Both the position numbers and the translations under genes were made by a program. Shown here piece after piece: positions 1-62,388 of a stretch of 64,000 nt of DNA. The notes under the pieces are model-generated. The model ran no database searches, was not told where the DNA came from, and saw nothing but the letters and a program-made list of their open reading frames with translations. Origin of the DNA: a bacterium (GTDB lineage: Bacteria > Patescibacteriota > Minisyncoccia > Phycocordibacterales > Phycocordibacteraceae); assembly GCA_037200965.1 (NCBI GenBank), contig JBBCGK010000001.1, positions 480,001-544,000 of the forward strand. Reading direction: 5' to 3'. How positions within the stretch are numbered: the stretch's first letter is position 1; each line of letters begins with the position of its first letter.

Positions 1-350
1 AACGCAAGCTCATTACGGGCGGCACCGCGAAGACCGTGTATACCGTCACCGGGACGCTCTACGAAAAGAAGATGCCGCCGCTTCCCAAGGCGAGCGTCAA
101 GCACAAAGTCCCTTCGGGCTATTGGAAGATCGTCGCCGTCGAGACGGACGACGGGATCGACGCCGTGGCGTTCGTCATGCCGCAGGATACACCCAAAGCC
201 GCCGATTATTGCGAAACGCGCACCACCATCGGCGACGTTGAGACGCGCTCGGGCCTCAAGTTCTTCCTCGATCTCAACGAGACCGACCGCACGCAGCTTG
301 AGGAGAGCGAGGCGAAGACCGGCCTCTATGAGGATTTGGGCTGCGAGTAG
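1..350 (+). CDS. 5'-partial CDS, C-terminal part of a putative DNA/RNA non-specific endonuclease-like protein
   Basis: The frame is open from the window edge through GTG at 36 to the stop at 350. The ...VPSGYWKIVAV...AVAFVMPQDT... pattern resembles the C-terminal region of the Endonuclease_NS family; this is a weak match made by eye. Confidence 0.35.
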   Translation, partial: RKLITGGTAKTVYTVTGTLYEKKMPPLPKASVKHKVPSGYWKIVAVETDDGIDAVAFVMPQDTPKAADYCETRTTIGDVETRSGLKFFLDLNETDRTQLEESEAKTGLYEDLGCE

Positions 351-372
351 CACGAGCGCGGGAAGATACGGC

Positions 373-660
373 ATGCGCAAGGCATTCATACTGACGCTGG
401 TGGCGTTCTCCGCACTTGCGGCAACCCCACTCATCGCGCGGACCACGGATGCGGAAGTCCGGGGACAAATGATCCGCGAGTCCATCGCAAGCTATCCCGG
501 CAACTGCCCGTGTCCGTACAGCACGATGCGAAACGGGCGCTCCTGCGGCGGGCGAAGCGCGTACAGTCGGCCCGGCGGATATGCTCCGCTGTGCTACCCG
601 TCTGACGTTTCGGACGATATGGTGCGCGGCTATCGAAGCACGCATGGGCTCGGGAACTGA
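373..660 (+). CDS. small secreted Cys-rich protein (hypothetical)
   Basis: ATG at 373 opens with a hydrophobic signal-like N-terminus (MRKAFILTLVAFSALAATPLIA) followed by several Cys; there is no family match. Confidence 0.35.
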   Translation: MRKAFILTLVAFSALAATPLIARTTDAEVRGQMIRESIASYPGNCPCPYSTMRNGRSCGGRSAYSRPGGYAPLCYPSDVSDDMVRGYRSTHGLGN

Positions 661-856
661 TCGATCCGATTGATATCTGGCGAAGCGCGCAAACGCTCAT
701 CTCGCTCTATGGCGATGAGGCGGAACAGTTCGCGCTTCGCCGCGCCGCTACCCTGCTCGGCGAAGGAGACCGGGAGGGCCATGCGGCAATGGCAAGCGTT
801 GCGGAAGCGGTGAAGAAGCTGCGGCAGGAGCGGCCCGAAAGCGGCGATGCCGTCCA

Positions 857-1330
857 CTAGTCGGCGTCCGGCAGCTTATCGGAAGCCTCGGCAAACTCCC
901 GCACCAGCGCGACGATGTGCTTGCGCCGGGCGGGCGACTTGACCTGCGCGAACGCTCTCGCAAGCGCCCGCCCGTCGGCGCTCGAAAGCAGCGGCATTTC
1001 TTCCGCGAACAGTGCCGAACGGGCTTTGTCGTATGCCTCGGAAACGAAGTATTCCCAGGGCAGATCAAGCACCACCATCATCCGCAACAGCGCTTCAAGC
1101 GGCAGCCGGTTGGTTCCCTTTTCATACTTCTGCATCTGTTGGAAACTAACGCCGAGGCGCTTTCCGAGAGCGAGTTGCGACAGGCCGCGCAGCGTCCGTG
1201 CGGCAAATATCTTTTGGCCGATAATCTTATTGATCTCTGACGAACTGTGCTTGCGCGGGGCCATTCTCAATCCCGTTATACTATCGATCTCGCAAATTCT
1301 ATGGCGCGAAAACCCCATTGTCGCGCGCAA
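857..1330 (-). CDS. XRE-family helix-turn-helix transcriptional regulator
   Basis: A 157-aa ORF with an HTH_3-like segment (IGQKIFAARTLRGLSQLALGKRLGVSFQQMQKYEKG). Confidence 0.6.
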   Translation of the reverse strand: MRATMGFSRHRICEIDSITGLRMAPRKHSSSEINKIIGQKIFAARTLRGLSQLALGKRLGVSFQQMQKYEKGTNRLPLEALLRMMVVLDLPWEYFVSEAYDKARSALFAEEMPLLSSADGRALARAFAQVKSPARRKHIVALVREFAEASDKLPDAD

Positions 1331-1340
1331 TCTCAGCCTG

Positions 1341-2384
1341 TTACGCCTCCTTCATCCACTCCCGGTGCATGCGCTCCCATTCCGGGCGCGGCGCTTCGAA
1401 CTCTTCCCGGAACCACGGCATATGCTCTGGCACGAAGACCGTCTCGCGCAGGAACGCGAGCGTCGATTTGACGGCGGGTTTTGCGGCATGCACGCGGTTA
1501 TATGAGATGTAGAGCTTGCCGGGAAGGCGAAACGCAAGCGGAAGGGCGACGAGGTCCGGGTCGCCAAGCGCGTGGTAGGTAGGTGCGAGCGCGATGCCCG
1601 CGCCAAAATGCAGGCACCGCTCGAAGAAGCTCGTCTGGTTGGTGAGGATCGACACGTTCTTGACGACGTTTCCGCCCGACCATGCGGCCCAGGATGCCGT
1701 GCGCGTCTGATACTGGGCGAGATCGAGCAACCGGTGCTCGCTAAGCGCTTCGCTCGTCTGCGGCGTCCCGTGTTTTTGCAGATAGGACTTCGACGCGAAC
1801 AGGGCGTAATGGACGGTCGCGAGCGGCCTCGACACCTGATCCGAATTTCCCGGATCGTAGAAGTGGATGCGGATGTCGAAGCTGTCGCTTCGGGGCGCGG
1901 TGATGTCCTGATCGGGCGATACCTTGAGCTCAATGTTCGGATGCCGTTCGAGGAAGCTCGGCATGAACTGCGCCAGCCAGAGGCTCGCAACCCCGTCCGC
2001 GACCAGGATGCGGCAGTCGCCTTGAACGCTGCCTCCGCTGTCCTTCGCGTCCCTGCGAAGGAGCGCAATGCATTTGCGCGCCTCAAACGCGTTCGGAAGC
2101 AGACGTTCGCCGAGGTCGGTGAGCGCGCAGCCGTCGGTGCCGCGTATGAATACGCGCCCGCCGATCCACTGTTCGAAGCTGCGCAGCCGCTTGCTCACGG
2201 TTGCCTGCGTTGATCCGAGCATCGCCGCGGCCCGCTTGATGCTGCCGCCCTCGGCGATTGCGAGAAAATAGCGGAGATCGTTCCACTGCTCGGGCGAGGG
2301 GTCATCACTATTGGAAAGTACCATCTTCCGTCCCTTGGCTTCCGGGCGGCGATAATCGAATGGCAATTTAAGCTCCGGCAACAA
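1341..2384 (-). CDS. LysR-family transcriptional regulator (the true start may be the internal Met near 2324)
   Basis: N-terminal LysR HTH (LRYFLAIAEGGSIKRAAAMLGSTQATVSKRLRSFEQWIGGRVFIR) followed by a substrate-binding-like body of about 300 aa. Confidence 0.65.
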   Translation of the reverse strand: MLPELKLPFDYRRPEAKGRKMVLSNSDDPSPEQWNDLRYFLAIAEGGSIKRAAAMLGSTQATVSKRLRSFEQWIGGRVFIRGTDGCALTDLGERLLPNAFEARKCIALLRRDAKDSGGSVQGDCRILVADGVASLWLAQFMPSFLERHPNIELKVSPDQDITAPRSDSFDIRIHFYDPGNSDQVSRPLATVHYALFASKSYLQKHGTPQTSEALSEHRLLDLAQYQTRTASWAAWSGGNVVKNVSILTNQTSFFERCLHFGAGIALAPTYHALGDPDLVALPLAFRLPGKLYISYNRVHAAKPAVKSTLAFLRETVFVPEHMPWFREEFEAPRPEWERMHREWMKEA

Positions 2385-2425
2385 AAAAATGCATAAGGCG
2401 CCAGGCGGCGCCGTGGAGTAATTCC

Positions 2426-3592
2426 TTGGAAAAGAACGATTTTAGCGCGATACGAAGCGGTACCTACGGGCCCGAACATGCCGCAGCGCATCCCGATGGG
2501 GGAAGCGTATGGCTGCGTCCGGCCGGGGTCGGGGATATTCCGTTTGTGCATAGCCTGACCGTCTCGGACATCTCCGCCGAAACGGCACCGGAGGAGGTTA
2601 TTCGGGCTGTTCACGCCCGCAATCCCGATGCCCTGTGGCTTATCGAGCGCCAAAGAGGCGGGGAGCCACCGGCCCCTATCGGCTATTTCGGCTTCCTGCC
2701 GCTCACCGATCCCGGTCTCGACGCGCTCAAGGAAGGCGCGCTCGACCGCAAGAGCCCGCCGCTTGAGCTTGTGGCCGAGGGCGGCACGCGTCCGGCGGCG
2801 GTGTACGTGTGGGGCGTCGTGGCGCATCGCCTAGTGCGGGTCACCGCGCCGCTCCTCACCCTCGCGCTTTCGCCTTACATCGACGTTCCCTTCTACACCG
2901 TCTCCCAGACCGAAGAGGGGCTGCGCTCGGCCCGTAGGCGCGGCTTCGTGCCGGTCGATGCGCGGATCGGCGACCGGGGCGGGCTCGTGCTGCTGCCGCT
3001 TGGCAGCCTTCTTGCGCCGCCGCCAAGCAAAGTCGCGCAGCTCGACGTGATCGTGGCCTCGAACGCCGAGCACCTCATGATGTGCGCCTATGTTCGCGGC
3101 GTGGTGTTCGGCGCGGAGCAGCTCGCCCCCTACCGCGAGGAATTCGACGGCAACGACTTCTGCGGCATCCAGCTTCTGGGGTTCGTGAACAACGAGCCTG
3201 CGGCAGTGCTTCGCATCCGTCACTTCGCGTCATTCGCGAAATTCGAGCGGTATGCCGTGCTCGAGCGCTTCCGCAAAACGCGGATCAAGTACGAAATCCT
3301 GGAGTTCGGAATCGAGCTGTGCCGCCGCAAGGGATACACGAAGCTCTACGCGCACTCGCAGGTGCGCCTCGTCCGCTTCTATGAGCGGTTCGGCTTTCGT
3401 CTGTGCGCCGCGCAGCGTCCGCTCGTCTTCGCGGATCACGAATACGTCGAGATCGAAGCCGACCTCGCGCCGCATCCCGAGGCGATCACGACCGCCACCG
3501 ATCCCTACGTGATCATCCGACCCGAAGGGGCGTGGGACAGGCGCGGCGTTCTTGACCAGTCAGCGGCACGGCCCGCGACTAATCCCGTCTAG
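2426..3592 (+). CDS. GNAT-type N-acetyltransferase domain protein, with the GNAT fold in the C-terminal half
   Basis: C-terminal motif-A-like RRKGYTKLYAHSQVRLVRFYERFGF; the N-terminal 200 aa are uncharacterised. Confidence 0.45.
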   Translation: MEKNDFSAIRSGTYGPEHAAAHPDGGSVWLRPAGVGDIPFVHSLTVSDISAETAPEEVIRAVHARNPDALWLIERQRGGEPPAPIGYFGFLPLTDPGLDALKEGALDRKSPPLELVAEGGTRPAAVYVWGVVAHRLVRVTAPLLTLALSPYIDVPFYTVSQTEEGLRSARRRGFVPVDARIGDRGGLVLLPLGSLLAPPPSKVAQLDVIVASNAEHLMMCAYVRGVVFGAEQLAPYREEFDGNDFCGIQLLGFVNNEPAAVLRIRHFASFAKFERYAVLERFRKTRIKYEILEFGIELCRRKGYTKLYAHSQVRLVRFYERFGFRLCAAQRPLVFADHEYVEIEADLAPHPEAITTATDPYVIIRPEGAWDRRGVLDQSAARPATNPV

Positions 3593-3594
3593 GA

Positions 3595-3831
3595 GTGCTC
3601 GACATGGCCGGAACGCTCGATTGCTTTGTCCGCCTTGTTGAACTCGACACCTGCGTGCGTGAGTTGGCACAGCGCAAGCGCGCGAATAATAGGATCAGCA
3701 TATCCGATCTTGATGACGTTCTCCTGGCGCTTGCTGAAGCTCGGGAAACGATCCAGGACGACGCGTATGACGAGATGGCGAGGCGGCGAGCGATAACAAC
3801 GGCGGACATAATGCAGTTCGCAAAAGATTAG
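3595..3831 (+). CDS. hypothetical small protein (78 aa)
   Basis: ORF immediately downstream of the GNAT gene; no recognisable motif. Confidence 0.3.
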   Translation: MLDMAGTLDCFVRLVELDTCVRELAQRKRANNRISISDLDDVLLALAEARETIQDDAYDEMARRRAITTADIMQFAKD

Positions 3832-4098
3832 CGAAAGCGCGCGGCTCTATTCAAAACGCGGCCTACGACAAGTTCGCAACTATTCGTCCGACAACACTCG
3901 CCCGATAACGGATCATTCGGCAACCAGAGGATAATGAGTATATCGCGGGAGCGAAGCATAGGAGACGATGCAGTGCATAGTCCGTCATAAATTCAACGGC
4001 GGCATCCTGATGGTAGCTGTATAACAGCGTGGTGCCGGAACTTCCCCTTGTAGCCAATACCGGGCTTCGTTACAAAGCTTCAAGGGGAGGCTATATGC

Positions 4099-5770
4099 AT
4101 GCTTAATCACACCTTTGGAGTGATCTCGCTGGGTCGTTTCCTCACTGCTATACGTCCTGCGCGTTATGCGGTCCGCTCTGCCAATCGAACACGCTTCGGC
4201 CAAGGGCTGGTCTCGGTCCGCACCCTAGTCGTCGCTGCGTGCGTTGCAATGAGTTGGCTAGCCGCATTGCCGCAAGCCGCCATCGCGAGCAGCGTCTTGA
4301 TGAGCGTGCCAGGCGAAAGCGACGTAAACTCGGCGGGTGCCTTCACATATTCACTTCCTATTGCAGTTCCGCCCGGGACTGCCCGCATCGTACCGCGACT
4401 GTCGCTTGATTATTCCAGTCAAAGCGGCAATGGCCTCCAAGGCCTCGGCTGGTCGCTTTCCGGATTGCCGGCAATAGGAAGATGCGCGCGCACGGTGGCG
4501 CAAGACGGCGTGCATGGCAGTGTCAATTACGACGGCAGCGACAAATTCTGCTTGGAAGGCCAGCGCCTAGTCGCCCTAAGCGGCGTCTATGGCGCGAACA
4601 ATACGGAATATCGTACCGAAATAGAGAGTTTCACCAAAATTATTTCATACGGAACGGCGGGTAACGGGCCAGCCTCGTTCAAAGCGTGGACCAAGTCCGG
4701 TCAAATCCTGGAATTCGGAAACACGGCGGATTCCCGTATCGAAGCGGTCGGCAAGACAACGGTGCGCGCGTGGGCCGTCAATAAGGTTTCCGATGCCAAA
4801 GGAAACTACGTCACGGTCGAATACACCGACGACCAAACTAACGGAGAGGCGTATCCGGTTCGGATTGATTATACCGGCAATCCCAACGCAACGCCGGTGG
4901 TTATGCCGTACAATTCCGTGCAGTTCACATACACAACGCGCGCAGATATCACGATTGCCTATCAGGCCGGTTCGCAGCAGAAGATCACAAAACTTCTCAC
5001 CAATATTAAGACTTATCAAGCCGCGAATTTGGTTTCCGACTATCGCCTTGCCTATCAAGCCGGCTCATCGCTCGCACATTCGCGTCTAACGTCCATCACG
5101 TTATGTGATGGGTCGGGTACGCCGGTATGCCTTGCCCCCACGACCTTTGGCTGGCAGGGTGGCAGCGGTAGCCTGCCGACAATGACCGGGACCGCATCCA
5201 CTATCATTCCGACGCAAAGCGGTGATTTCAACGTTGACGGATTAACAGACCCCTTTGTCAAAGCCCCGTATTTTGGAACTCAGAGCGGAACGTTCGTCGC
5301 GAGCGGCATGACTATAAGCTATACCGACCCCATATCGGGATTGCCGTGGTCGGGTCTAACGGCTTTCCCCAACACAATGGTCGGGTTTGTATTGGGTGAT
5401 ACCGACGGAGACGGGTATAGCGACGTCACCGCGATGCGGGGTATCGCACATGGCGCTTATGCCAGGTTGGTGGTTACGCGCAACGACCAGCTCGGAAATC
5501 TTGGTCAGATCGGCCTGATCGATCCGCTGCATGCTGGCGCCATATTCAGCGGCGACTTCAATGGAGACGCGCGCACGGACGTTTTCGTGACGGGTGTAGC
5601 TTCTTATAACAGTACGACGTATCTGAGCCTGGGGACCGGATCGTTCACCGCCATCAACATGAGTTCGGTATATGAACCCATCACGACCGCCGATTTTGAT
5701 GGTGACGGATGCACCGATTTCTTGGGATCGACTAGTTGCACAACCTCCTTTTTACGAACGATCCTGCAGG
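4099..5770 (+). CDS. 3'-truncated Tc-toxin/Rhs-type protein N-terminus (SpvB domain plus FG-GAP/VCBS beta-propeller repeats); coding terminates inside repeat R1, so it is likely a gene fragment
   Basis: Good SD (AGGGGAGG) 8 nt before ATG 4099. The SpvB signature is PRLSLDYSSQSGNGLQGLGWSLSGLP...DKFCLEGQRLV. FG-GAP-like DxDGDG repeats are present (DTDGDGYSD, DFNGDARTD, DFDGDGCTD). There are no RHS/YD repeats or C-terminal toxin: after 5735 the frame runs into the 36-bp repeat and then into antisense, Arg-rich sequence. Confidence 0.7.
5735..5770. repeat. 36-bp direct repeat R1 (GTTGCACAACCTCCTTTTTACGAACGATCCTGCAGG), distal to cas2
   Basis: Exact 36/36 identity with the copies at 7319, 8730 and 11669, read directly from the sequence. 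Confidence 0.97.
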
Positions 5771-5784
5771 TTTCCGTTAATCTT

Positions 5785-7125
5785 CTAAGTCTCTTGTTGA
5801 GACGCAACACAGCCCCACGCCGCTTTTACCGAGTCATAGATAAAGCCTACCGTCAGAACCTTGGATATAACCGTCGTGGTTGGCAACGCCGTGCCTTCTG
5901 CCACGAACGACGCCCCCCAGGTAATCGCCCGGGCCGTACCGTCGTCTTTGATCCTGAAGATGAGCGTCTGGAAGTTCGTGGGTGTACCGGAGAGATTTGT
6001 CGTCATCGACGTGATCGCGGTCGCAAGAGCAGTAATCGTCACGGCGTCGCACCCATCGCTATTCACTGTAGGGGTTGCCGAAGAAACAATCGTCGTTATG
6101 CGTGGAGTATTTCTCTTATTTGCAAGAGTCTGTGTACCATTGTTAGTCACGACACTGTCAGCGTTTGTGCCTGCAACCGAGATTCTCAAATCTCCTGTTC
6201 CAACGGTAAGCACTCCTGAGGTGTGCGTTGCAACCCAGTTACCGTTACTAATGTTCCAGGTAAAACCAGTAGCACTAAAGAGATCGGCCCATCCAAGCGC
6301 GGTCGTCCCAAGAGCGGCAATATCATTCGTGACCGGGGAAAGAGCGGAGGAGGTAAGTTGTATCGTTCCTGTTCCGTTGATAGCCAGACCAAGCGTATTG
6401 GTTGTAGGAAGGTAGAGGCGATTACCGGTAGCAGTTGAAGAGGTAGGAGCAAAGCCAGCCGCAGTTGCCAGCGATGCCAACGTCAAAGCTCCGGCGTCGG
6501 TCAAGGTTGCATTGGTGGATGTTGCTTGTGCGCCGCGCGAAGTACCATCGGACCGAAGTATAGATTCATCTGTGGCAAAAGTGGCGGCAGCGGTGACTAC
6601 ATTACTCGGTATATCGCTTGTAAGAGCGACGGTACCCGTGGACGCCGGAAGGGTAATGGTGTTAGTTCCAGCGATTGCCGTAGGGACGAGGGCGATGGTA
6701 CCGGAAGTTGAACCCGAGAAGGTTACACCCTGGGTACCGGAAATGATGCCAGTGGTGTCAGCAATAAGCACTGCCGAGTTCTGGATCAGCTTACCAGTGG
6801 TAGTGTCGAAGCGGGCCACGGCGTTATCAGTTGCTGAAGCCGGGCCTACAACATAGGTAGCAAGGGAAGCAGTCGTAGGAATAACATAGCCGCTTTGGAG
6901 CGCTATAGCGATCGTTCCGGAAGTAGTGATCGGTACGCCGGATACCGTAAGTCCTGTCGGTACCGTAGCGTCAACGGATGTAACCGTACCTCCTCCTCCG
7001 GGGAGGTCTATAAGAAGCCTGTGCGTCGTCGGGTCTGCATATAGACGCACAGGCGTCTTGCCGTCAGCGCTTGAAGCTGCTATCAGCGTTGGAACATCGT
7101 TCTGGTCTCGGTAAGCATCAGCCAT
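5785..7125 (-). CDS. S/T/G-rich fibre-like protein (possible phage tail-fibre / adhesin-like), 446 aa
   Basis: Long low-complexity T/S/G/A-rich body with a distinct C-terminal globular-looking region (FQTLIFRIKDDGTARAITWGASFV...). It ends 14 bp before R1, and its N-terminal motif SSADGKTPVRLYADPTTH is duplicated in the upstream fragment. Confidence 0.4.
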   Translation of the reverse strand: MADAYRDQNDVPTLIAASSADGKTPVRLYADPTTHRLLIDLPGGGGTVTSVDATVPTGLTVSGVPITTSGTIAIALQSGYVIPTTASLATYVVGPASATDNAVARFDTTTGKLIQNSAVLIADTTGIISGTQGVTFSGSTSGTIALVPTAIAGTNTITLPASTGTVALTSDIPSNVVTAAATFATDESILRSDGTSRGAQATSTNATLTDAGALTLASLATAAGFAPTSSTATGNRLYLPTTNTLGLAINGTGTIQLTSSALSPVTNDIAALGTTALGWADLFSATGFTWNISNGNWVATHTSGVLTVGTGDLRISVAGTNADSVVTNNGTQTLANKRNTPRITTIVSSATPTVNSDGCDAVTITALATAITSMTTNLSGTPTNFQTLIFRIKDDGTARAITWGASFVAEGTALPTTTVISKVLTVGFIYDSVKAAWGCVASQQET

Positions 7126-7127
7126 AA

Positions 7128-7325
7128 TCAGGTACTTTGTACGAGTAATTCCCCGGCACTATTGGCGTAGAGCACCACAGGCGTCTTGCCGTCAGCGCTT
7201 GAGACAGCCATGAGTGCAGGAACAAAGTTTGCGTCCCGCAGATCGTCTACCGGCCCAAAGTCCGACCCGGTAGTGTCGTCGTCCGCCATAAGCGCATGTG
7301 TTGAAGGGTCAGCAACGAGTTGCAC
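7128..7325 (-). pseudogene. out-of-frame duplicated N-terminal fragment of the fibre-like gene; its GTG start lies inside repeat R2
   Basis: GTG at 7325..7323 sits 2 nt after the AAGGAGG of the repeat (minus sense). The encoded ...ADPSTHALMADDDTT...SSADGKTPVVLYAN repeats the N-terminal motif of 5785..7125. A stop at 7130..7128 then puts it in a different frame from the ATG at 7125. Confidence 0.4.
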
Positions 7326-7354
7326 AACCTCCTTTTTACGAACGATCCTGCAGG
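7319..7354. repeat. 36-bp direct repeat R2
   Basis: Exact copy of the 36-mer. Confidence 0.97.
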
Positions 7355-7451
7355 AGTATGAGTACTGATACCGTCCAATCTGCCATTGAATATGCGCGAC
7401 ACTCGCCGTCGTGACGACGTTGAGTTAAGTCAATGGCGATTTATGTTACTG

Positions 7452-7973
7452 TCACCGGACCGGCACGAACCCTTCGGGAAGAAACTGCGTCGGGTCCTTC
7501 CACGGTTCAATAGCAACTGCTTTGGGGTATTTGCTTATCATGTAAGCATCGGTGCAATACACCAAACTTTCGGGATCATCGTCCGAAGGCTCAAGGCCTG
7601 AAAATTCAACCATCACAGATTTCTGGTTGGTAATTTTTCCAAAGGTGTCAATGAACCGCTTGATTTTGTCAAACTCACGCACAAAATCGTCGGGCTCAAA
7701 TAGATAGGAATACACTACTACTGTATTCTCGCCGACGATCCGTTCGGAACCGTCCTCATTTTTCACGCGGAAACGCCCAGCGGCGAGCGGCAATTGGGTT
7801 ACACCGCCATTGATCCGCACCATAATTTCCATGGCGCTATCGACCCATTTGTCAAAATTTTCAACAGGCTTCTGATCGCGATCTTGGTTAGGCAAATAAA
7901 CTGCAAACCGTTGTACCGATTCAGATGTATCGGCACCTAGCGCGGTCTTGAGGTCAAAATCTACGAGCGCCAT
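7452..7973 (-). CDS. hypothetical protein (173 aa), upstream partner of the PRTase-domain gene
   Basis: Clean ORF with balanced composition and no recognisable motif; it is co-oriented with, and 86 bp downstream of, the PRTase gene. Confidence 0.45.
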   Translation of the reverse strand: MALVDFDLKTALGADTSESVQRFAVYLPNQDRDQKPVENFDKWVDSAMEIMVRINGGVTQLPLAAGRFRVKNEDGSERIVGENTVVVYSYLFEPDDFVREFDKIKRFIDTFGKITNQKSVMVEFSGLEPSDDDPESLVYCTDAYMISKYPKAVAIEPWKDPTQFLPEGFVPVR

Positions 7974-8059
7974 GATCGCTTCCTATTAGCCATCAATGAA
8001 AAGGCCCCATAGCCGGGGCCTTAAAGTAGGCAAAATGCCAAATTGCAACGCTGATGCCG

Positions 8060-8716
8060 CTACCGCGGTCTTGAAGGTCTCCGAATTCCGAGCACCGTTT
8101 TAGGGTCCCGCTTGATCTTTAGAAACCGTCCAAATCCCGAACGAGCGTCTTCAGGTTTCTCCGCTTGTTGGGAAGCTGAACGAATCGCTGTCACTATCTC
8201 GTTAGCAGCTTCTGATATGGGCGGCAAATTTTGCCGGTTATAGTCGCCTGGCGGGATTCCCGCGTGCTTCTTTTTCATATGATTTTCTCCTGTTTCTTCA
8301 CAGGGTTGCGACCCATCGGTCTCAGCCCCGTGTTGATCGGGAGAAAGCCCTTCAAGAATCGGGCCGCGTACGTCGGTTTCCCAGGTTAAGGCTTCGACGC
8401 GAATATCCTGGCCACGGTCCGTCCTTATGCTTTCGCGATGGGGACCATACCCACATAGTACCACAGCGGCATGCGTAGTCGCGCCCGAAATCTCGTGGAC
8501 TATATCCGCAGCAGCGCCAATACCAGCGCCCGTTACTATCAAGTCATAGACCATCAAGATGCGATCACCGGAAAGCGGTTTGTCTGCCGTTATTGCTACG
8601 CCCTTCGCCCAACGCGTCTCGCGATAGATGCAGGCGGGCAATCCGGTTTCGGCGACGAGGGACGAGAGCATCGAAATCGCGCCGACCGGCCCCATCTCTT
8701 TTTCGATAAAGCACAA
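8060..8716 (-). CDS. phosphoribosyltransferase (PRTase type I) domain protein; start at TTG 8716 or ATG 8695
   Basis: PRPP-binding-loop-like DRILMVYDLIVTGAGIGAAADIV. Such PRTase-domain proteins occur as effectors in some anti-phage systems; that point is from general knowledge, not from a search. Confidence 0.55.
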   Translation of the reverse strand: MCFIEKEMGPVGAISMLSSLVAETGLPACIYRETRWAKGVAITADKPLSGDRILMVYDLIVTGAGIGAAADIVHEISGATTHAAVVLCGYGPHRESIRTDRGQDIRVEALTWETDVRGPILEGLSPDQHGAETDGSQPCEETGENHMKKKHAGIPPGDYNRQNLPPISEAANEIVTAIRSASQQAEKPEDARSGFGRFLKIKRDPKTVLGIRRPSRPR

Positions 8717-8729
8717 TCGCGTAATGCCG

Positions 8730-8765
8730 GTTGCACAACCTCCTTTTTACGAACGATCCTGCAGG
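8730..8765. repeat. 36-bp direct repeat R3
   Basis: Exact copy of the 36-mer. Confidence 0.97.
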
Positions 8766-9363
8766 AAACCATGAGAGAACCCGAGTTGATCTCGGTGGCC
8801 ACGATCTTCAAAGGCGACAACTCGTTAAATTCCTCATAGTTCAGGTCAGCGAACCGAATTCGATCAGGCACTCCATCGTGATCACGACCATTTGCGGCAT
8901 ATAATTCCCGCATACGTTCTCGAAGAACTGTGTTGATGAATTCACGAATGGGCGTTGTGGTGAAAAAGCCTAAGTGCCGCCATATGCGCAGCATTCCAAA
9001 CGTAACTAGGGGAGCTGTTAAAAAAGACAATAATACACCCCCCAACGCCGTAGCGGACAATGCCCATCGAAGTCCCTGGCGGAGGCGAACAAATCTACGC
9101 CAATCATCAGCCCCCAATAACGTTACGGGGGTCAAGTTATGTAGGCTGAGAATATTTTGATCCCTAATGTCGGGATTCATCAAAGTCGAAGCACTGTATC
9201 CCGCCGCGACTAGCGTTGCCACGATCGCGCCAGCTGACGCCCCGGCTACACCTACGAAGGCGAGCCCATTCTTCGCGGCACCCTCCAAAGCACCAATATG
9301 CGCTATGCCCTTAGCACCGCCACCTTCGAATATGCCAAAGGCTGGCCTCTTAGCGTCCATCAC
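8766..9363 (-). CDS. patatin-like phospholipase, 3'-truncated at repeat R3 (lacks the region that would carry the catalytic Asp)
   Basis: GGGAKG oxyanion motif and GASAG (GxSxG) serine motif near the N-terminus. The ORF reads straight into the repeat (…SGSLMVS|CRIVRKKEVVQ) before any DG[A/G] Asp motif and then continues as Arg-rich antisense of the PRTase gene. Confidence 0.6.
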
Positions 9364-9496
9364 TGTATGTATCCTTTCGCAAATCAGGTCGGGGCCTGCA
9401 CAAACGACAGAACATCGGACAGGCTGGTGAAATAATGAGATACCAGCCTTCGCACATTGCTGTTCCGCATACAGATACAGCAGTTGCTAGTTCAAA

Positions 9497-11068
9497 TCAG
9501 TTCAGTTGCTCCCGCACCAACGAAAGATCGTTGAACAACGTTCTCGTAAGATTCGGGATTTTTTCCAGTTTGTCTGCTTGTATTAACTTCGCCATAAAAC
9601 GAATGCTTCCCTCCACTCGCTCGTCATAGAATATTTCGTGCAGAAACTTCCGCCCCTGCCGCAAATCCGTAGCATCAAACAGAAATTCCAGCTTGGCTTC
9701 GTTATCGACCATAGCAACTGCACGCCAAAAGAATCGAGGAAAATTCGCTGTCAGGAGGCTCTTGCGGACTATCTTGCTTAGGGAGGAGCGCGAAACAATC
9801 TCGCGTTTCAGATCGCTTGGGCCATTCAAAAATATGTCCCACTCGAAACGAGCCATATCACTATTGCTCGATAATTTTTTAAGCATCTCTAAAATATGAT
9901 CAAATGCCAGGATAGCATCGTACACGTCGTCAAATCGGACGCGAATTTTGCTATAGAGCGGCACGAGACACAAATCCGCGCGAGCACGGGTTATCTTCGT
10001 CCCACGCTTTCGAGACCAAGTTGTCGTTATGATGTTAGATGGGCCGCTCAGCTTGATCTCAGAGTATGGGCCGATGCCGTCGTCATGCGCATACAGTTTG
10101 GTTATGCGCGTCGCCCGTAGAAGAAAACCCGTGCGAGGTTCGGGTACTATGGGACCAGTTGTGGGCCCAAGGCCGCTGAGTGCGACCGCGTGAAATGCTC
10201 GTTTGCTTTTCTTGGAGCGTTCTAAGTTGAAGTCAAAACTCAGAATGATCGGAATATTGCCCCTCAAGAATGCATTTGCTGCGGCTTGGATATTGGCTCG
10301 CTCGGGCGTCATAAACAAATCCGCTTCGAGACCGACATTGCGCAAAACGCCAGCCATTTGATCGATATCCAAGCCGTCGTTCGGGAGAGCTAGGCCAGCT
10401 GTTGGCAGCGAAGCAAACGCTCGTTTGGTTATTTCAATAGGTGATAAGATTGGATTGTCATACAAATTCGCCGTGCCATGCAGTGTAGTCCACAGAGCGC
10501 TGGTAGCGCATGCGCCAACCTCTCGGTCTTGTTCTTGAAAAGGCAGCGCACGTACAGGCAGATCTATGCCGAAAAGATTTGGTACATATCCGCGCTCAGT
10601 GAGGAAGCGACTCGATGGATTACTCCCAACCGGCGCCAAACACGTTCGCCCAATGATGGTTTCGGGAAGAGGTTTGACAACTACAAAGCCGTGATATCCC
10701 AAGACGTCGAACCTACACTCACCGCGGCCCGAAACGAAAAGCGCTTCGACCATATCTTTATCGAACGGTTGCCGAAAAAAGTGAATTCGTGAACATTCTT
10801 TCGGATAGTTCGCGTGGCATCTCGCGTAGTATCCTGTATGATCTTCGGCGAAATGCTTGTCGATGTAGTCGCGCTCAAATACAAGAGTTTCGATTTTCGC
10901 GGCTTCACAGTAACGAGCTAGAAAAATGACCTGGGGCTTTTGTGCAATTTGCTCCAGTCTAGGTTTAAATGCTCCGGCAACAAAAAGCGCTACCAAGTTC
11001 TCTCGATTGTACTTGAGTACTTGGTAGCGCTCGCCCATGTGATCTAACTGAATATCCGCGTACGTCAC
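9497..11068 (-). CDS. hypothetical 523-aa protein with a possible papain-fold / peptidase-C39-like Cys-His domain
   Basis: Candidate catalytic Cys in EVGACATSALWTTLHG and downstream His/Asp in AFHAVALSGLG / YAHDDGIGPY. This is pattern recognition only. Its start overlaps the end of 11065..11529 by 4 nt. Confidence 0.3.
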   Translation of the reverse strand: MTYADIQLDHMGERYQVLKYNRENLVALFVAGAFKPRLEQIAQKPQVIFLARYCEAAKIETLVFERDYIDKHFAEDHTGYYARCHANYPKECSRIHFFRQPFDKDMVEALFVSGRGECRFDVLGYHGFVVVKPLPETIIGRTCLAPVGSNPSSRFLTERGYVPNLFGIDLPVRALPFQEQDREVGACATSALWTTLHGTANLYDNPILSPIEITKRAFASLPTAGLALPNDGLDIDQMAGVLRNVGLEADLFMTPERANIQAAANAFLRGNIPIILSFDFNLERSKKSKRAFHAVALSGLGPTTGPIVPEPRTGFLLRATRITKLYAHDDGIGPYSEIKLSGPSNIITTTWSRKRGTKITRARADLCLVPLYSKIRVRFDDVYDAILAFDHILEMLKKLSSNSDMARFEWDIFLNGPSDLKREIVSRSSLSKIVRKSLLTANFPRFFWRAVAMVDNEAKLEFLFDATDLRQGRKFLHEIFYDERVEGSIRFMAKLIQADKLEKIPNLTRTLFNDLSLVREQLN

Positions 11069-11529
11069 ACTGTGAACGGGATACGCCGACGGTCAGGAGA
11101 AATCTGGTTGGCTTGTTCTCGACTTTCAATTGCCTTGAGCATTGGCGAAAGACGCTTAGCGACTTGCGCAGTAAGATCAGTTCTGGAGGCCGTCGCCTTG
11201 GACTTGGGCCGTGCAGAACTCTTCGTCTTTTTGTGACGCATAGCGCAACCTCCAATTTCGGTGAGCAGGATGTTGCCCTCAGTTCCAGCCCGGCGGGTAT
11301 AAACTCCAACACGGGGATCAAAATCAAGCTCATGGACTTGACTTCCTGGAACGGGGCCGCCTAGGGCTCCCCTGTAACGAATCAGCCCTGTTCTTAACGT
11401 ACCACGAGCGCCTTCGTATCCCCAATATTTTGTATGTGGATAATCCACCAACACAAGTTCTTTGAATGGTGAGGCTGGCCGTTGCCTTTCCTCAGTGGCG
11501 TCGCCGTCCGTTGACCCAATCGCCTGCAT
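11065..11529 (-). CDS. hypothetical protein (154 aa), first gene of the R4-R3 segment, translationally coupled to the 523-aa gene
   Basis: ORF overlapping the downstream gene by 4 nt (ATGA-type overlap); no recognisable motif. Confidence 0.45.
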   Translation of the reverse strand: MQAIGSTDGDATEERQRPASPFKELVLVDYPHTKYWGYEGARGTLRTGLIRYRGALGGPVPGSQVHELDFDPRVGVYTRRAGTEGNILLTEIGGCAMRHKKTKSSARPKSKATASRTDLTAQVAKRLSPMLKAIESREQANQISPDRRRIPFTV

Positions 11530-11668
11530 AACAATTTAATGCCTTCCTTCTGGCAGCAGACCACTAGGAGCGGCAGACGGCCGTTCATTATCAGCGTGGA
11601 TCATTGGCTGGACCGAGCCCCAATCGGTGACTGATTCGTACGGCTAAAGACCGCTCGGGTCAACTAAG

Positions 11669-11704
11669 GTTGCACAACCTCCTTTTTACGAACGATCCTG
11701 CAGG
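11669..11704. repeat. 36-bp direct repeat R4, 32 bp from the cas2 stop codon
   Basis: Exact copy of the 36-mer; the cas2 stop codon is at 11737..11739. Confidence 0.97.
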
Positions 11705-11736
11705 AGTCCGTGTATATTGAGCGGTAACGCGAATTA

Positions 11737-13085: not shown

Positions 13086-13140
13086 GGGGCGTATATACTA
13101 CCGCCTTGACCTAGTGTCAAGGATCACGCAACGCCCTCGC

Positions 13141-20713: not shown

Positions 20714-24085
<3,372 letters not shown>

Positions 24086-62048: not shown

Positions 62049-62120
62049 GCTCCCGTCGTTCAATGGATAGGACGCAACCTTGCGGAGGTTGTGATGTAGG
62101 TTCGATTCCTACCGGGAGCA
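62049..62120 (+). tRNA. tRNA-Arg (GCG)
   Basis: GCTCCCG acceptor, D-arm GTTCAATGGATAGGAC, anticodon arm CAACC-TTGCGGA-GGTTG, T-arm GTAGGTTCGATTCCTAC. Confidence 0.7.
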
Positions 62121-62213
62121 CACATTCACGTTAACTCCAGCGGGCAAGCGCTTCTTTGATAAGCTTTTGCGTTGTATGGAAGGGGCGCGTATCATCGGTT
62201 TGTTCCGTCTTCC

Positions 62214-62285
62214 GCTCTCGTCGTTCAATGGATAGGACAGCTCCCTCCGAAGGAGCAGATATAGGTTCGATTCCTATCGAGAGCA
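62214..62285 (+). tRNA. tRNA-Arg (CCG), paralogous to the upstream tRNA-Arg
   Basis: GCTCTCG acceptor, anticodon arm GCTCC-CTCCGAA-GGAGC, T-arm ATAGGTTCGATTCCTAT. Confidence 0.75.
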
Positions 62286-62388
62286 CAGCGGTTAGAGACC
62301 AAAACAATGTCCGTGAGGCGCCGCAAACGGTGCGATATCGCGCGGGATGTTTGCACGCAAAAAACGGAACGAGATTCCGGCTTTTGCG

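Follow-up and report, generated by a model that had tools for sequence, protein, structure and literature searches.

A putative stand-alone Cas1-Cas2 adaptation module with kilobase DNA segments between CRISPR-like repeats in a patescibacterial genome

What kind of process leaves perfect direct repeats between mutually unrelated, gene-sized pieces of DNA, with genes cut at several of those repeats? Based on interrogation of a 64-kb stretch of a patescibacterial genome (hereafter the window) and of related loci, we consider it probable that the locus is a CRISPR adaptation module standing on its own, made up of cas1, cas2, a short leader, and a repeat, and that its array holds kilobase DNA fragments, not spacers of ~35 nt. 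Stand-alone CRISPR adaptation modules have been noted in a phylogenomic study of Cas4 (PMC5704561). For the wider reading, to which we give somewhat better than even credence, a Cas1-Cas2 lineage that lacks a length ruler, and that occurs mainly in ultra-small Patescibacteria-like genomes, would archive fragments of 0.14 to >7 kb, taken from phages, foreign bacteria, and possibly the cell itself, in a CRISPR-like array that has no linked effector.

The window contains four direct repeats of 36 nt, all perfect copies of GTTGCACAACCTCCTTTTTACGAACGATCCTGCAGG (Table 1). No further copy was found in the 64 kb with up to three mismatches tolerated (chance expectation of 0), and no degenerate copy was found in positions 1–5734. 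The repeats delimit three mutually unrelated segments, and the sequences flanking the repeats likewise show no relatedness to each other. The first repeat begins 32 nt past the end of cas2; across 14 loci, the sequence before the first repeat ends in GGCT (GGACT in the window) with an A-rich stretch upstream, and the leader-repeat junction GGCT/CCTGCA is kept. The four copies adjoining a leader agree with the identical direct repeats of 23–55 nt of CRISPR arrays, whereas the short, near-uniform spacers of such arrays (about 26–72 nt) are replaced by segments of 1375, 1548, and 2903 nt. Structure within the repeat is confined to a TGCA end palindrome (4–6 bp), covariation is not above that of shuffled alignments (a score at least as high was obtained in 56 of 500 shuffles), and the repeat matched no Rfam family, and thus no CRISPR-DR model.

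Table 1. Features of the array and its surroundings in the window.
Feature	Positions	Strand	Remarks
cas1, 351 aa	12030..13085	-	Pfam Cas_Cas1, E 1.1e-63
cas2-like gene, 98 aa	11737..12033	-	4-nt overlap with cas1 stop
Leader-like 32 nt, cas2 stop to first repeat	11705..11736	-	
R4, leader-proximal repeat	11669..11704	-	reads CCTGCAGGATCGTTCGTAAAAAGGAGGTTGTGCAAC in cas orientation
Segment A, 2903 nt, GC 0.51	8766..11668		154-aa ORF, 523-aa ORF, C-truncated patatin
Patatin-like fragment	8766..9363	-	R3 cuts 3' side
R3, repeat	8730..8765	-	perfect copy
Segment B, 1375 nt, GC 0.52	7355..8729		N-truncated phosphoribosyltransferase-like ORF, 173-aa ORF
Phosphoribosyltransferase-like fragment	8060..8729	-	reading frame open to R3
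R2, repeat	7319..7354	-	perfect copy
Segment C, 1548 nt, GC 0.54, phage-like	5771..7318		379 related stretches in viral contigs
Small phage gene, 3' two-thirds	7128..7318	-	R2 cuts it
Fibre-like gene, complete, 446 aa	5785..7125	-	stop 14 nt before R1
R1, repeat, last detectable	5735..5770	-	perfect copy
SpvB/FG-GAP fragment, 545 aa	4099..5734	+	Pfam SpvB and FG-GAP; R1 cuts 3' side
Terminal flank, GC ~0.62	700..5734		HTH, LysR, GNAT, SpvB fragment

The cas1 product is a Cas1 homologue with its catalytic residues kept; E181, H241, D253, and E256 do not vary among 30 clade members. It matches the generic NCBIfam cas1 model at 221 bits (cut-off 71.7) and falls under every subtype-specific cut-off, and its top PDB match is the Synechocystis Cas1 7cr6 (E 1.8e-31), with a weaker match to casposase 6opm (E 7.6e-20). 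The adjacent gene is identified as Cas2-like from its matches to PADLOC Cas2b (E 9.4e-7) and Pfam CRISPR_Cas2 (E 0.0034, under the gathering score); a profile of the family found nine PDB sequences, six of which their depositors had named Cas2, with marginal E-values (0.004–0.14). The β1 Asp of the protein is changed to W-R/E-T, and a single-sequence AlphaFold model (pLDDT 48) is unusable. These two genes lay outside the region considered in an earlier note on this DNA. No effector or crRNA-processing gene is linked to them (as judged from ~10 kb on the cas side and from those large ORFs of the window that were scanned), and no gene recurs upstream of cas1 besides cas1-cas2 in 33 loci. As no effector was found nearby, the array may have arisen as a by-product, may serve to capture genes, or may act as a memory that an unlinked system reads.

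At four of the seven boundaries, a recognisable gene is interrupted: the SpvB/FG-GAP gene, a 91-aa phage gene, and the phosphoribosyltransferase-like and patatin genes. Homologues of the SpvB/FG-GAP fragment (42–51% identical, including those of Bradyrhizobium, Rhizomicrobium, and Thiobacillus) are mostly 880–950 aa long and have an extra TcdB_toxin_midN domain (PF12256), and relative to these the fragment is short by ~350–400 aa. The earlier note had this gene losing its reading frame exactly at R1, with the RHS or C-terminal region absent; the C-terminal truncation stands and recognisable sequence does end at 5734, but the frame is not lost, being open by chance to 6219 in a course antisense to the fibre gene, and the missing part corresponds to the TcdB mid-N region, not necessarily to RHS. 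The patatin gene does meet R3 before its catalytic-Asp region, as was claimed: the fragment covers positions 2–118 of the 191 in the Pfam Patatin profile, with GxSxG kept and the last 73 positions, the site of the catalytic Asp, absent, and alignment with PlpD and ExoU in the PDB is restricted to the N-terminal part. The phosphoribosyltransferase-like ORF (8729 to 8060), which the earlier note did not mention, reaches R3 from the side opposite the patatin; its residues 46–91 align with residues 109–154 of the 181 in APRT at weak E-values (0.006), which indicates that ~60 N-terminal residues are absent.

The phage-like segment required a different reading, in that what was presumed to be an out-of-frame, 65-aa copy of the N-terminus of the fibre gene is really the last ~62 codons of a separate phage gene, of which the ~29 first codons are removed at R2. 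This fragment is 57–71% identical to an ORF just upstream of the fibre gene in four phage contigs (L171, L172, L174, and L177), and the full-length ORF has 91 aa in L171 and L174. The C-terminus of the fibre-like protein matches phrog_3030 and phage proteins. Truncation does not extend to every repeat, as had been proposed: R4 shows no evident cut gene, the stop of the fibre gene precedes R1, and the 173-aa ORF of segment B stops 97 nt short of R2. The 523-aa ORF of segment A has no family matches. For one segment, the parental arrangement of genes is found intact in phage contigs. No near-identical donor emerged; no donor at least 90% identical was found for any ORF of the window, and excision and insertion are therefore not directly shown.

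A repeat of the same family (CCTGCA..AAGG..TTGTGCAAC) follows cas2 in all fetched loci that have Cas1 at least ~54% identical and extend far enough past cas2, and in 10 of the 13 with Cas1 40–50% identical. Of the five loci above 50% that were unsettled after the first repeat scan, four also carry the family; a clear copy is missing from L101, and L024 and L113 show only a diverged candidate. Repeats of the clade are solo or spaced 177–7709 nt apart and are identical inside each array (the exception is one SNP in one L008 copy), and the 28 segments between them measure 140–7672 nt (median ~1.36 kb). Distant Cas1 (28–37% identical; DPANN, Chloroflexota, and Bacillota) is accompanied by 37-nt repeats with a 72–78-nt period wherever an array was found. 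Fragments in the related arrays include a protein kinase (positions 157–259 of 263 in the Pkinase profile; 419 aa versus homologues of 608–624 aa), NDK (Ndk; profile 57–134 of 135), GntR (12–64 of 64), a DnaX whose frame runs open to the segment edge without a start codon, and a TPR fragment that is open at both ends. Segment GC is unlike that of the flanks, and ORF orientation is mixed. That the segments, here and in relatives, consist of pieces of unrelated genes, mixed in orientation and in composition, is consistent with the protospacer-like origin that had been suggested for them.

Population variants indicate where the arrays change. Nine contigs from different samples are identical through the cas2 end, leader, and repeat, and then continue into three different sequences, with the three alleles splitting exactly at the 3' end of the repeat (after GTGCAAC); the contigs end before the second repeat of the filled alleles. 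Comparable variant pairs are L103/L104 and L017/L022. Together with the adjoining cas1-cas2 and leader and the clade-wide layout, these breaks at the repeat end support the earlier proposal that segments were captured, as protospacers are, without regard to gene boundaries, and did not arise as integron cassettes or by duplication. Based on the sequence evidence, we infer that the insertions are catalysed by Cas1-Cas2 and that the leader end is the entry point of new segments. Cas1-Cas2 would link both 3' ends of a long linear fragment to both ends of the leader-proximal repeat, and gap repair would copy the 36–37-nt repeat, as with ordinary spacer acquisition; no molecular ruler would set the distance between the fragment ends. 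Phage-like DNA, other bacteria, and possibly the genome of the cell itself would be the sources of the fragments, which would be cut with only a weak preference for AT-rich sites, such that their ends would often fall inside genes.

Segment ends are AT-rich, albeit with a weak bias (the last base is A in 14 of 28). Among the 19 segments (from 14 arrays) that reach 1 kb, 42% of boundaries fall within open frames of 100 codons or more, versus 67% of random internal positions (Mann-Whitney p = 0.01); thus, capture is not completely indifferent to sequence, and this deficit together with the AT-enriched ends indicates that cutting is not arbitrary. Segment lengths bunch at 1.2–1.55 kb (10 of 28), a clustering that is not expected if there is no ruler.

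Other processes could place such repeats between unrelated sequences. A minimal, casposon-like element consisting of cas1-cas2 and the repeat could hop and rearrange, with host or foreign DNA trapped between events through successive insertions, deletions, and solo-repeat recombination; the segments would then not be individually acquired spacers. We regard this as unlikely. In its favour, two contigs from a single MAG, L017 and L022, have only a 1504-nt module in common (99.9% identity), and in L002, and there only, an 18-nt direct repeat flanks the cas1-cas2-leader-repeat module; mobility of the module could therefore play a part. Next to the last repeat lie truncated genes, and in two lineages a truncated cas1 is fused straight to the 5' end of a repeat, which would suit such an element but is also the expected product of a broken DNA end joined to the leader-repeat junction. 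Against the element, genes cut by a repeat are not resumed past it, and neighbouring segments differ in content and GC, which argues against simple insertion of the repeats into contiguous DNA; moreover, the population variants share an identical leader and repeat and differ only in what lies downstream. Casposons likewise tie a Cas1-family integrase to kilobase insertion with target duplication, and the module here seemingly occurs in more than one context. However, the neighbours include no family-B DNA polymerase (polB), the module ends have no terminal inverted repeats, Cas2 is present, the 36–37-nt repeat target is reused such that an array is built, and Cas1 is nearer to the CRISPR Cas1 than to the casposase.

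Cassette exchange is, in our assessment, quite unlikely. In that case the repeat would be an integron-like attachment site, at which an unlinked tyrosine or serine recombinase moves circular units of segment plus repeat, and cas1-cas2 would be a passenger or mere neighbour. The arrays do look like integron cassette arrays, being one-sided series of gene-sized, strain-variable inserts between direct repeats, beside a presumed integrase gene; boundaries somewhat avoid long open frames, and one L008 segment contains a truncated Phage_integrase ORF. Yet no recombinase, tyrosine or other, recurs beside the arrays in 33 loci, and the repeat family is strictly tied to this Cas1 clade, and accompanies cas1-cas2 as a 1.5-kb unit, across unrelated genomic contexts. 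The repeats are identical, with the end palindrome and no covariation, unlike the imperfect palindromes of attC, and ~40% of boundaries cut genes, the inserts often being truncated genes in either orientation and some short segments being internal gene fragments. The earlier exclusion of integron cassettes agrees with our finding of neither an integron integrase (IntI by attI) nor an attC-like site. Misassembly over the repeat, or an old ordinary array with spacers swollen by unrelated insertions, appears highly improbable. Most examples are metagenome assemblies with contigs that often end near repeats, but the window array is identical in two separate assembly records, eight identical repeats are present in a complete 876-kb chromosome (OY969557.1, long-read), and the pattern recurs in fourteen arrays drawn from different studies. 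All segments are at least 140 nt long, there is no remnant of ~35-nt spacers in the clade arrays, and the identity of repeats in each array argues against an old, decaying array.

The preferred reading, capture by Cas1-Cas2, accords with canonical CRISPR adaptation in the Glu/His/Asp-Glu positions of Cas1, the Cas2 partner, the short conserved leader, the identical 36–37-nt repeats in one orientation, the leader-proximal variation, the single-repeat "empty" arrays, and a content that includes phage-like DNA. It differs in that the segments vary in length and hold whole genes and gene fragments, whereas canonical spacers are fixed at 26–72 nt, in having no linked effector or crRNA-processing gene, and in a Cas1 under the subtype-specific NCBIfam cut-offs. 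A fixed spacer length, arising from how the Cas1-Cas2 complex is shaped, is viewed as defining CRISPR adaptation; if our reading is correct, the spacer-length ruler would be dispensable. The locus would then represent natural kilobase-scale DNA capture, and a living form midway from casposon-type integration to CRISPR adaptation, and would offer a testable model for the step from casposon integration to spacer acquisition. The ruler-less lineage could serve gene acquisition or long-RNA memory, could provide a route of DNA gain in episymbiotic bacteria with reduced genomes, and would be a candidate source of an enzyme for homology-free, site-specific insertion of long DNA. We found no description of kilobase spacers in the literature searched; standard CRISPR finders limit spacer length, so that kilobase arrays would go unreported and may be under-counted.

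In both the window and L008, the DNA past the last repeat starts within a gene and has no further detectable repeat; in the window, this terminal flank may be the oldest, unbounded segment or an acquired island. Every ORF in the three segments of the window is co-oriented with cas1-cas2, and all four ORFs in L008 have the opposite orientation.

The window contains four direct, mismatch-free copies of a 36-nt repeat (GTTGCACAACCTCCTTTTTACGAACGATCCTGCAGG; CCTGCAGGATCGTTCGTAAAAAGGAGGTTGTGCAAC in the orientation of the cas genes), of which R4 is closest to cas2, and the segments A, B, and C lie between neighboring copies. The sequences flanking the four copies are mutually unrelated. A fifth copy was not found in the 64 kb at up to three mismatches (chance expectation zero), and no credible degenerate copy was found in the window even with 16 mismatches allowed; none lies within 1–5734, although a truncated gene directly follows the last repeat, as is also the case in the related locus L008. 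The earlier note was confined to 5735–9363 and missed the decisive context, namely the cas1 and cas2-like genes just outside that stretch.

Repeats, segments, cut genes, and cas genes in the window
Feature	Position	Strand	Remark
Repeat R1	5735		perfect copy
Repeat R2	7319		perfect copy
Repeat R3	8730		perfect copy
Repeat R4	11669		perfect copy
Segment A	8766–11668		2903 nt
Segment B	7355–8729		1375 nt
Segment C	5771–7318		1548 nt
SpvB/FG-GAP gene	4099–5734	plus	recognizable up to R1
Small phage-gene frame, start of segment C	7318->7128	minus	open to R2
Phosphoribosyltransferase-like frame	8729->8060	minus	open to R3, on the side opposite patatin
Patatin gene	9363->8766	minus	Pfam profile positions 2–118 of 191, then R3
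cas2-like gene, 98 aa	11737–12033	minus	32 nt upstream of R4
cas1, 351 aa	12030–13085	minus	overlaps start of cas2-like gene

The only structure in the repeat is a short TGCA end palindrome; covariation did not exceed that of shuffled sequences, so that a conserved RNA structure is unsupported. An Rfam search of the repeat returned no match, hence no CRISPR-DR match, and a search of the genome collection with its first 22 nt was likewise negative. A synthetic construct or RBS cassette was considered because of the SbfI/PstI and AAGGAGG motifs in the repeat and a SpeI site overlapping R1, and was ruled out, since the flanks differ at the other copies and related genomes have diverged repeats without these motifs.

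Cas1 was identified by Pfam (E 1.1e-63), with 221 bits to the generic NCBIfam cas1 model and scores under all subtype-specific cut-offs; its best solved relative is Synechocystis Cas1 (7cr6, E 1.8e-31), with the casposase 6opm ranking behind. The cas2-like product matches PADLOC Cas2b (E 9.4e-7), and its family profile has matches of marginal E-value to nine PDB sequences, of which six were deposited under the name Cas2; a single-sequence structure prediction was unusable (pLDDT 48). In this Cas2 family, the position of the beta1 catalytic Asp (..YD..) is occupied by W-R/E/Q/H/D-T/S in 17 of 18 members and by W-T-T in L133, and the cysteines C73 and C76 near the C-terminus are invariant (alignment A4). 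A near-consensus promoter-like TTGACA-17 nt-TATATA lies at 13092–13120 on the minus strand, within the 55 nt that separate the MetRS stop from the cas1 start; this pair was seen by eye, and a consensus scan over the same stretch left it unlisted. The neighboring genes are housekeeping genes (MetRS, an AI-2E family transporter, a class II tRNA synthetase matching Pfam tRNA-synt_2b, and RecO), and no gene family recurs upstream of cas1 among 33 loci beyond local synteny. Nothing besides cas1, cas2, leader, and repeat was detected as part of the system.

The repeat proved to be a trait of one Cas1 clade, in a comparison of relatives drawn from the protein collection, a set with one genome per species, and metagenomes. 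A repeat family of 36–37 nt, CCTGCA...AAGG..TTGTGC(A/G)AC, is present about 30–35 nt after cas2 in every fetched locus with a Cas1 at least ~54% identical and enough sequence there, and in 10 of 13 loci at 40–50% identity. Of the five loci above 50% identity on which a first repeat scan had given no decision, four have it as well; L101 lacks a clear copy, and L024 and L113 have a diverged candidate only. The repeat is either single or multiple; multiple copies are spaced at 177 to 7709 nt and are identical, except for a single SNP in one of the L008 copies. Spacings are 1369, 1416, 1377, and 2414 nt in L008; 710, 2316, and 1265 nt in L017; 1299 and 1519 nt in L093; 7709 nt in L091; and 250, 2563, 181, 616, 4044, 423, and 177 nt between the eight copies in L014, a complete 876-kb chromosome (OY969557.1). 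The 28 segments from 14 loci measure 140–7672 nt (median 1358 nt), with none below 140 nt and an uneven distribution (mode 1.2–1.55 kb; 10 segments at 1228–1548 nt). More distant Cas1 proteins (28–37% identical; DPANN archaea, Chloroflexota, Bacillota) are associated, where an array was found, with 37-nt repeats at a period of 72–78 nt in up to 111 copies. Most source names in the clade refer to groups of Patescibacteria (Paceibacterota, Parcubacteria, Adlerbacteria, Saccharibacteria), and a few bins are labeled otherwise.

A recognizable gene is cut at four of the seven repeat boundaries in the window, so the proposal that genes are truncated at every repeat stands for these four, and the remaining three show no evident cut gene: the fibre gene ends 14 nt short of R1, a 173-aa ORF ends 97 nt short of R2, and none is evident at R4. 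Truncation of the patatin gene by R3 was borne out by its partial profile match. The SpvB/FG-GAP gene does not lose its frame at R1, as had been supposed; the frame is kept and, by chance, remains open as far as 6219, on the strand antisense to the gene that follows. Its homologues (42–51% identical) are mostly 880–950 aa with an extra TcdB_toxin_midN domain, which indicates that the window copy lacks about 350–400 C-terminal residues. Rhs/CDI-type orphan toxin cassettes with a common coding repeat were ruled out, since the repeat encodes no conserved motif in the SpvB frame and the segments are on the opposite strand and unrelated. In the phosphoribosyltransferase-like frame, residue 46 aligns with residue 109 of 181-aa APRTs, which suggests that about 60 residues are missing, at weak E-values. 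The stretch at the start of segment C, previously read as an out-of-frame duplicate of the fibre N-terminus, is instead the remnant of a 91-aa phage gene: the intact gene lies directly upstream of a homologous fibre gene in phage contigs L171 and L174, L172 and L177 have a homologous ORF in the same place, and the window frame is 57–71% identical to these ORFs and lacks about the first 29 codons. Intact parental gene order was recovered in this one case, and no near-identical donor was found for any ORF of the window (90%-identity clusters). Insertion of repeats into contiguous native DNA was ruled out, as the cut genes are not resumed beyond a repeat.

Segments of related arrays likewise consist of gene fragments. 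These include a Ser/Thr kinase without its N-lobe (Pkinase profile 157–259 of 263; 419 aa, whereas homologues up to 76% identical have 608–624 aa), an internal part of ndk measuring 386 nt (NDK profile 57–134 of 135), a GntR regulator missing the first ~11 profile positions, a DnaX that has no start codon and whose frame continues up to the edge of its segment, a TPR fragment of 673 nt with an open frame on either side, and, in L008, a TrpRS/TyrRS-like gene truncated by the last repeat. The GC content of segments is unlike that of the flanks (0.51–0.54 vs ~0.59 in the window). ORFs share one orientation within the arrays of the window and of L008; across arrays orientation is mixed. Sequence comparison suggests diverse origins of the segments: segment C resembles phage DNA, with a match to phrog_3030 and 379 related stretches in viral contigs; the SpvB fragment is similar to genes of proteobacteria; and the L014 ndk fragment is 78% identical at the DNA level to the ndk region of another clade member, which suggests that self or near-self DNA may also be captured. 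Searches of viral contigs with the 523-aa ORF and Cas1 gave no match, a chimeric query for the parents of three L014 fragments gave kinase relatives only, short segments showed no similarity to each other, and the internal tandem duplication in an L011 segment is a 165-nt repeat only.

The claim that cuts are made without regard to genes is supported, with limits. Among the 38 boundaries of the 19 segments that reach 1 kb or more, 42% lie within open frames of 100 codons or longer, compared with 67% of random internal positions in the same segments (Mann-Whitney p = 0.01). The terminal 5 nt of segments are 61% AT vs 51% overall, and half of the segments (14 of 28) end in A (uncorrected p = 0.005); a strict PAM-like motif is absent from segment ends. 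Thus, cutting through genes is common yet not fully random.

Evidence for insertion at the repeat comes from nine contigs of different samples, in which the cas2 end, leader, and repeat are all identical and are followed by three different continuations: AGGGAGTATGAGC... in five, CCTTTGGCCACGG... in three (at least 1130 nt), and ACCGTCTATCTC... in one. Divergence begins exactly after ..GTGCAAC, and the pairs L103/L104 and L017/L022 behave in the same way. The bases immediately preceding the first repeat (..GGCT) are conserved across 14 loci, as a leader-repeat junction would predict. Two lineages have a cas1 that is truncated (at residue ~250 or ~115) and fused directly to the repeat 5' end (L123 at 2230; L159 at 6093 and L160 at 1503), with the L123 junction at a CCTGCA microhomology between the cas1 codons for Pro-Ala of GKPA and the repeat start; this is the footprint that a broken end joined to the leader-repeat junction would leave.

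In the mechanism that we propose, a long DNA fragment would have its two 3' ends linked by Cas1-Cas2 to both borders of the leader-proximal repeat, which repair would then duplicate; the net process would be ordinary spacer acquisition minus the length ruler. Speculatively, the substrate may have to form a loop for both ends to be presented, which would agree with the lack of segments shorter than 140 nt. The arrays may be a side product of an integrase that has become relaxed, a means of capturing genes, or a memory that an unlinked system reads. The window locus resembles a CRISPR adaptation module in its Cas1, Cas2, repeat, and leader, but departs from short uniform spacers by about two orders of magnitude; no effector is linked to it, and none was found among the large ORFs scanned in the window. 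It lacks polB and terminal inverted repeats, and is thus not a casposon; nor is it an integron. We know of no earlier description of kilobase spacers, and none was found in the full-text literature searched, with few subscription-journal papers in scope. Stand-alone adaptation modules have already been described (PMC5704561).

An integron-like cassette system driven by another recombinase is quite unlikely: the repeat family is strictly linked to this cas1-cas2, no recombinase recurs near the arrays in 33 loci, and the segments are gene fragments, so the earlier note was right to set integron cassettes aside. Mobility of the cas1-cas2-repeat module, which could itself drive the rearrangements, is an unlikely main cause that may nevertheless contribute. 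The cas1-cas2-leader-repeat unit looks like a discrete module of ~1.45–1.5 kb; in L002 (stretches 9959–9986 and 11409–11436) an 18-nt direct repeat, AGGGAGTATGAGCGGGAT, lies on either side of it, and the only sequence common to L017 and L022, two contigs of one MAG, is the 1504-nt module (9899–11402, 99.9% identity). Such mobility leaves unexplained both the unrelated neighboring segments and the allele series behind a fixed leader. Misassembly or decay is very improbable, given that two separate NCBI assembly records (a 22-kb and a 960-kb contig) have the window's array in identical form, that a complete chromosome has an array, and that the repeats are identical.

Both assemblies break 4.4–5 kb past R1: the 960-kb contig (JBBCBH010010897.1) starts at window position 700, with 1–699 absent from that record, and in the other assembly the 22-kb contig stops close to 1291; the window may be two records joined. 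Elsewhere in the window, an 1123-aa class I aminoacyl-tRNA synthetase (20714–24085, minus strand) contains a complete His_Phos_1 (histidine-phosphatase) domain at residues 502–674, between matches to the synthetase catalytic-domain models and before the anticodon-binding domain. Two 74-nt direct repeats, 80% identical, at 62049–62122 and 62214–62287 look like adjacent tRNA genes.
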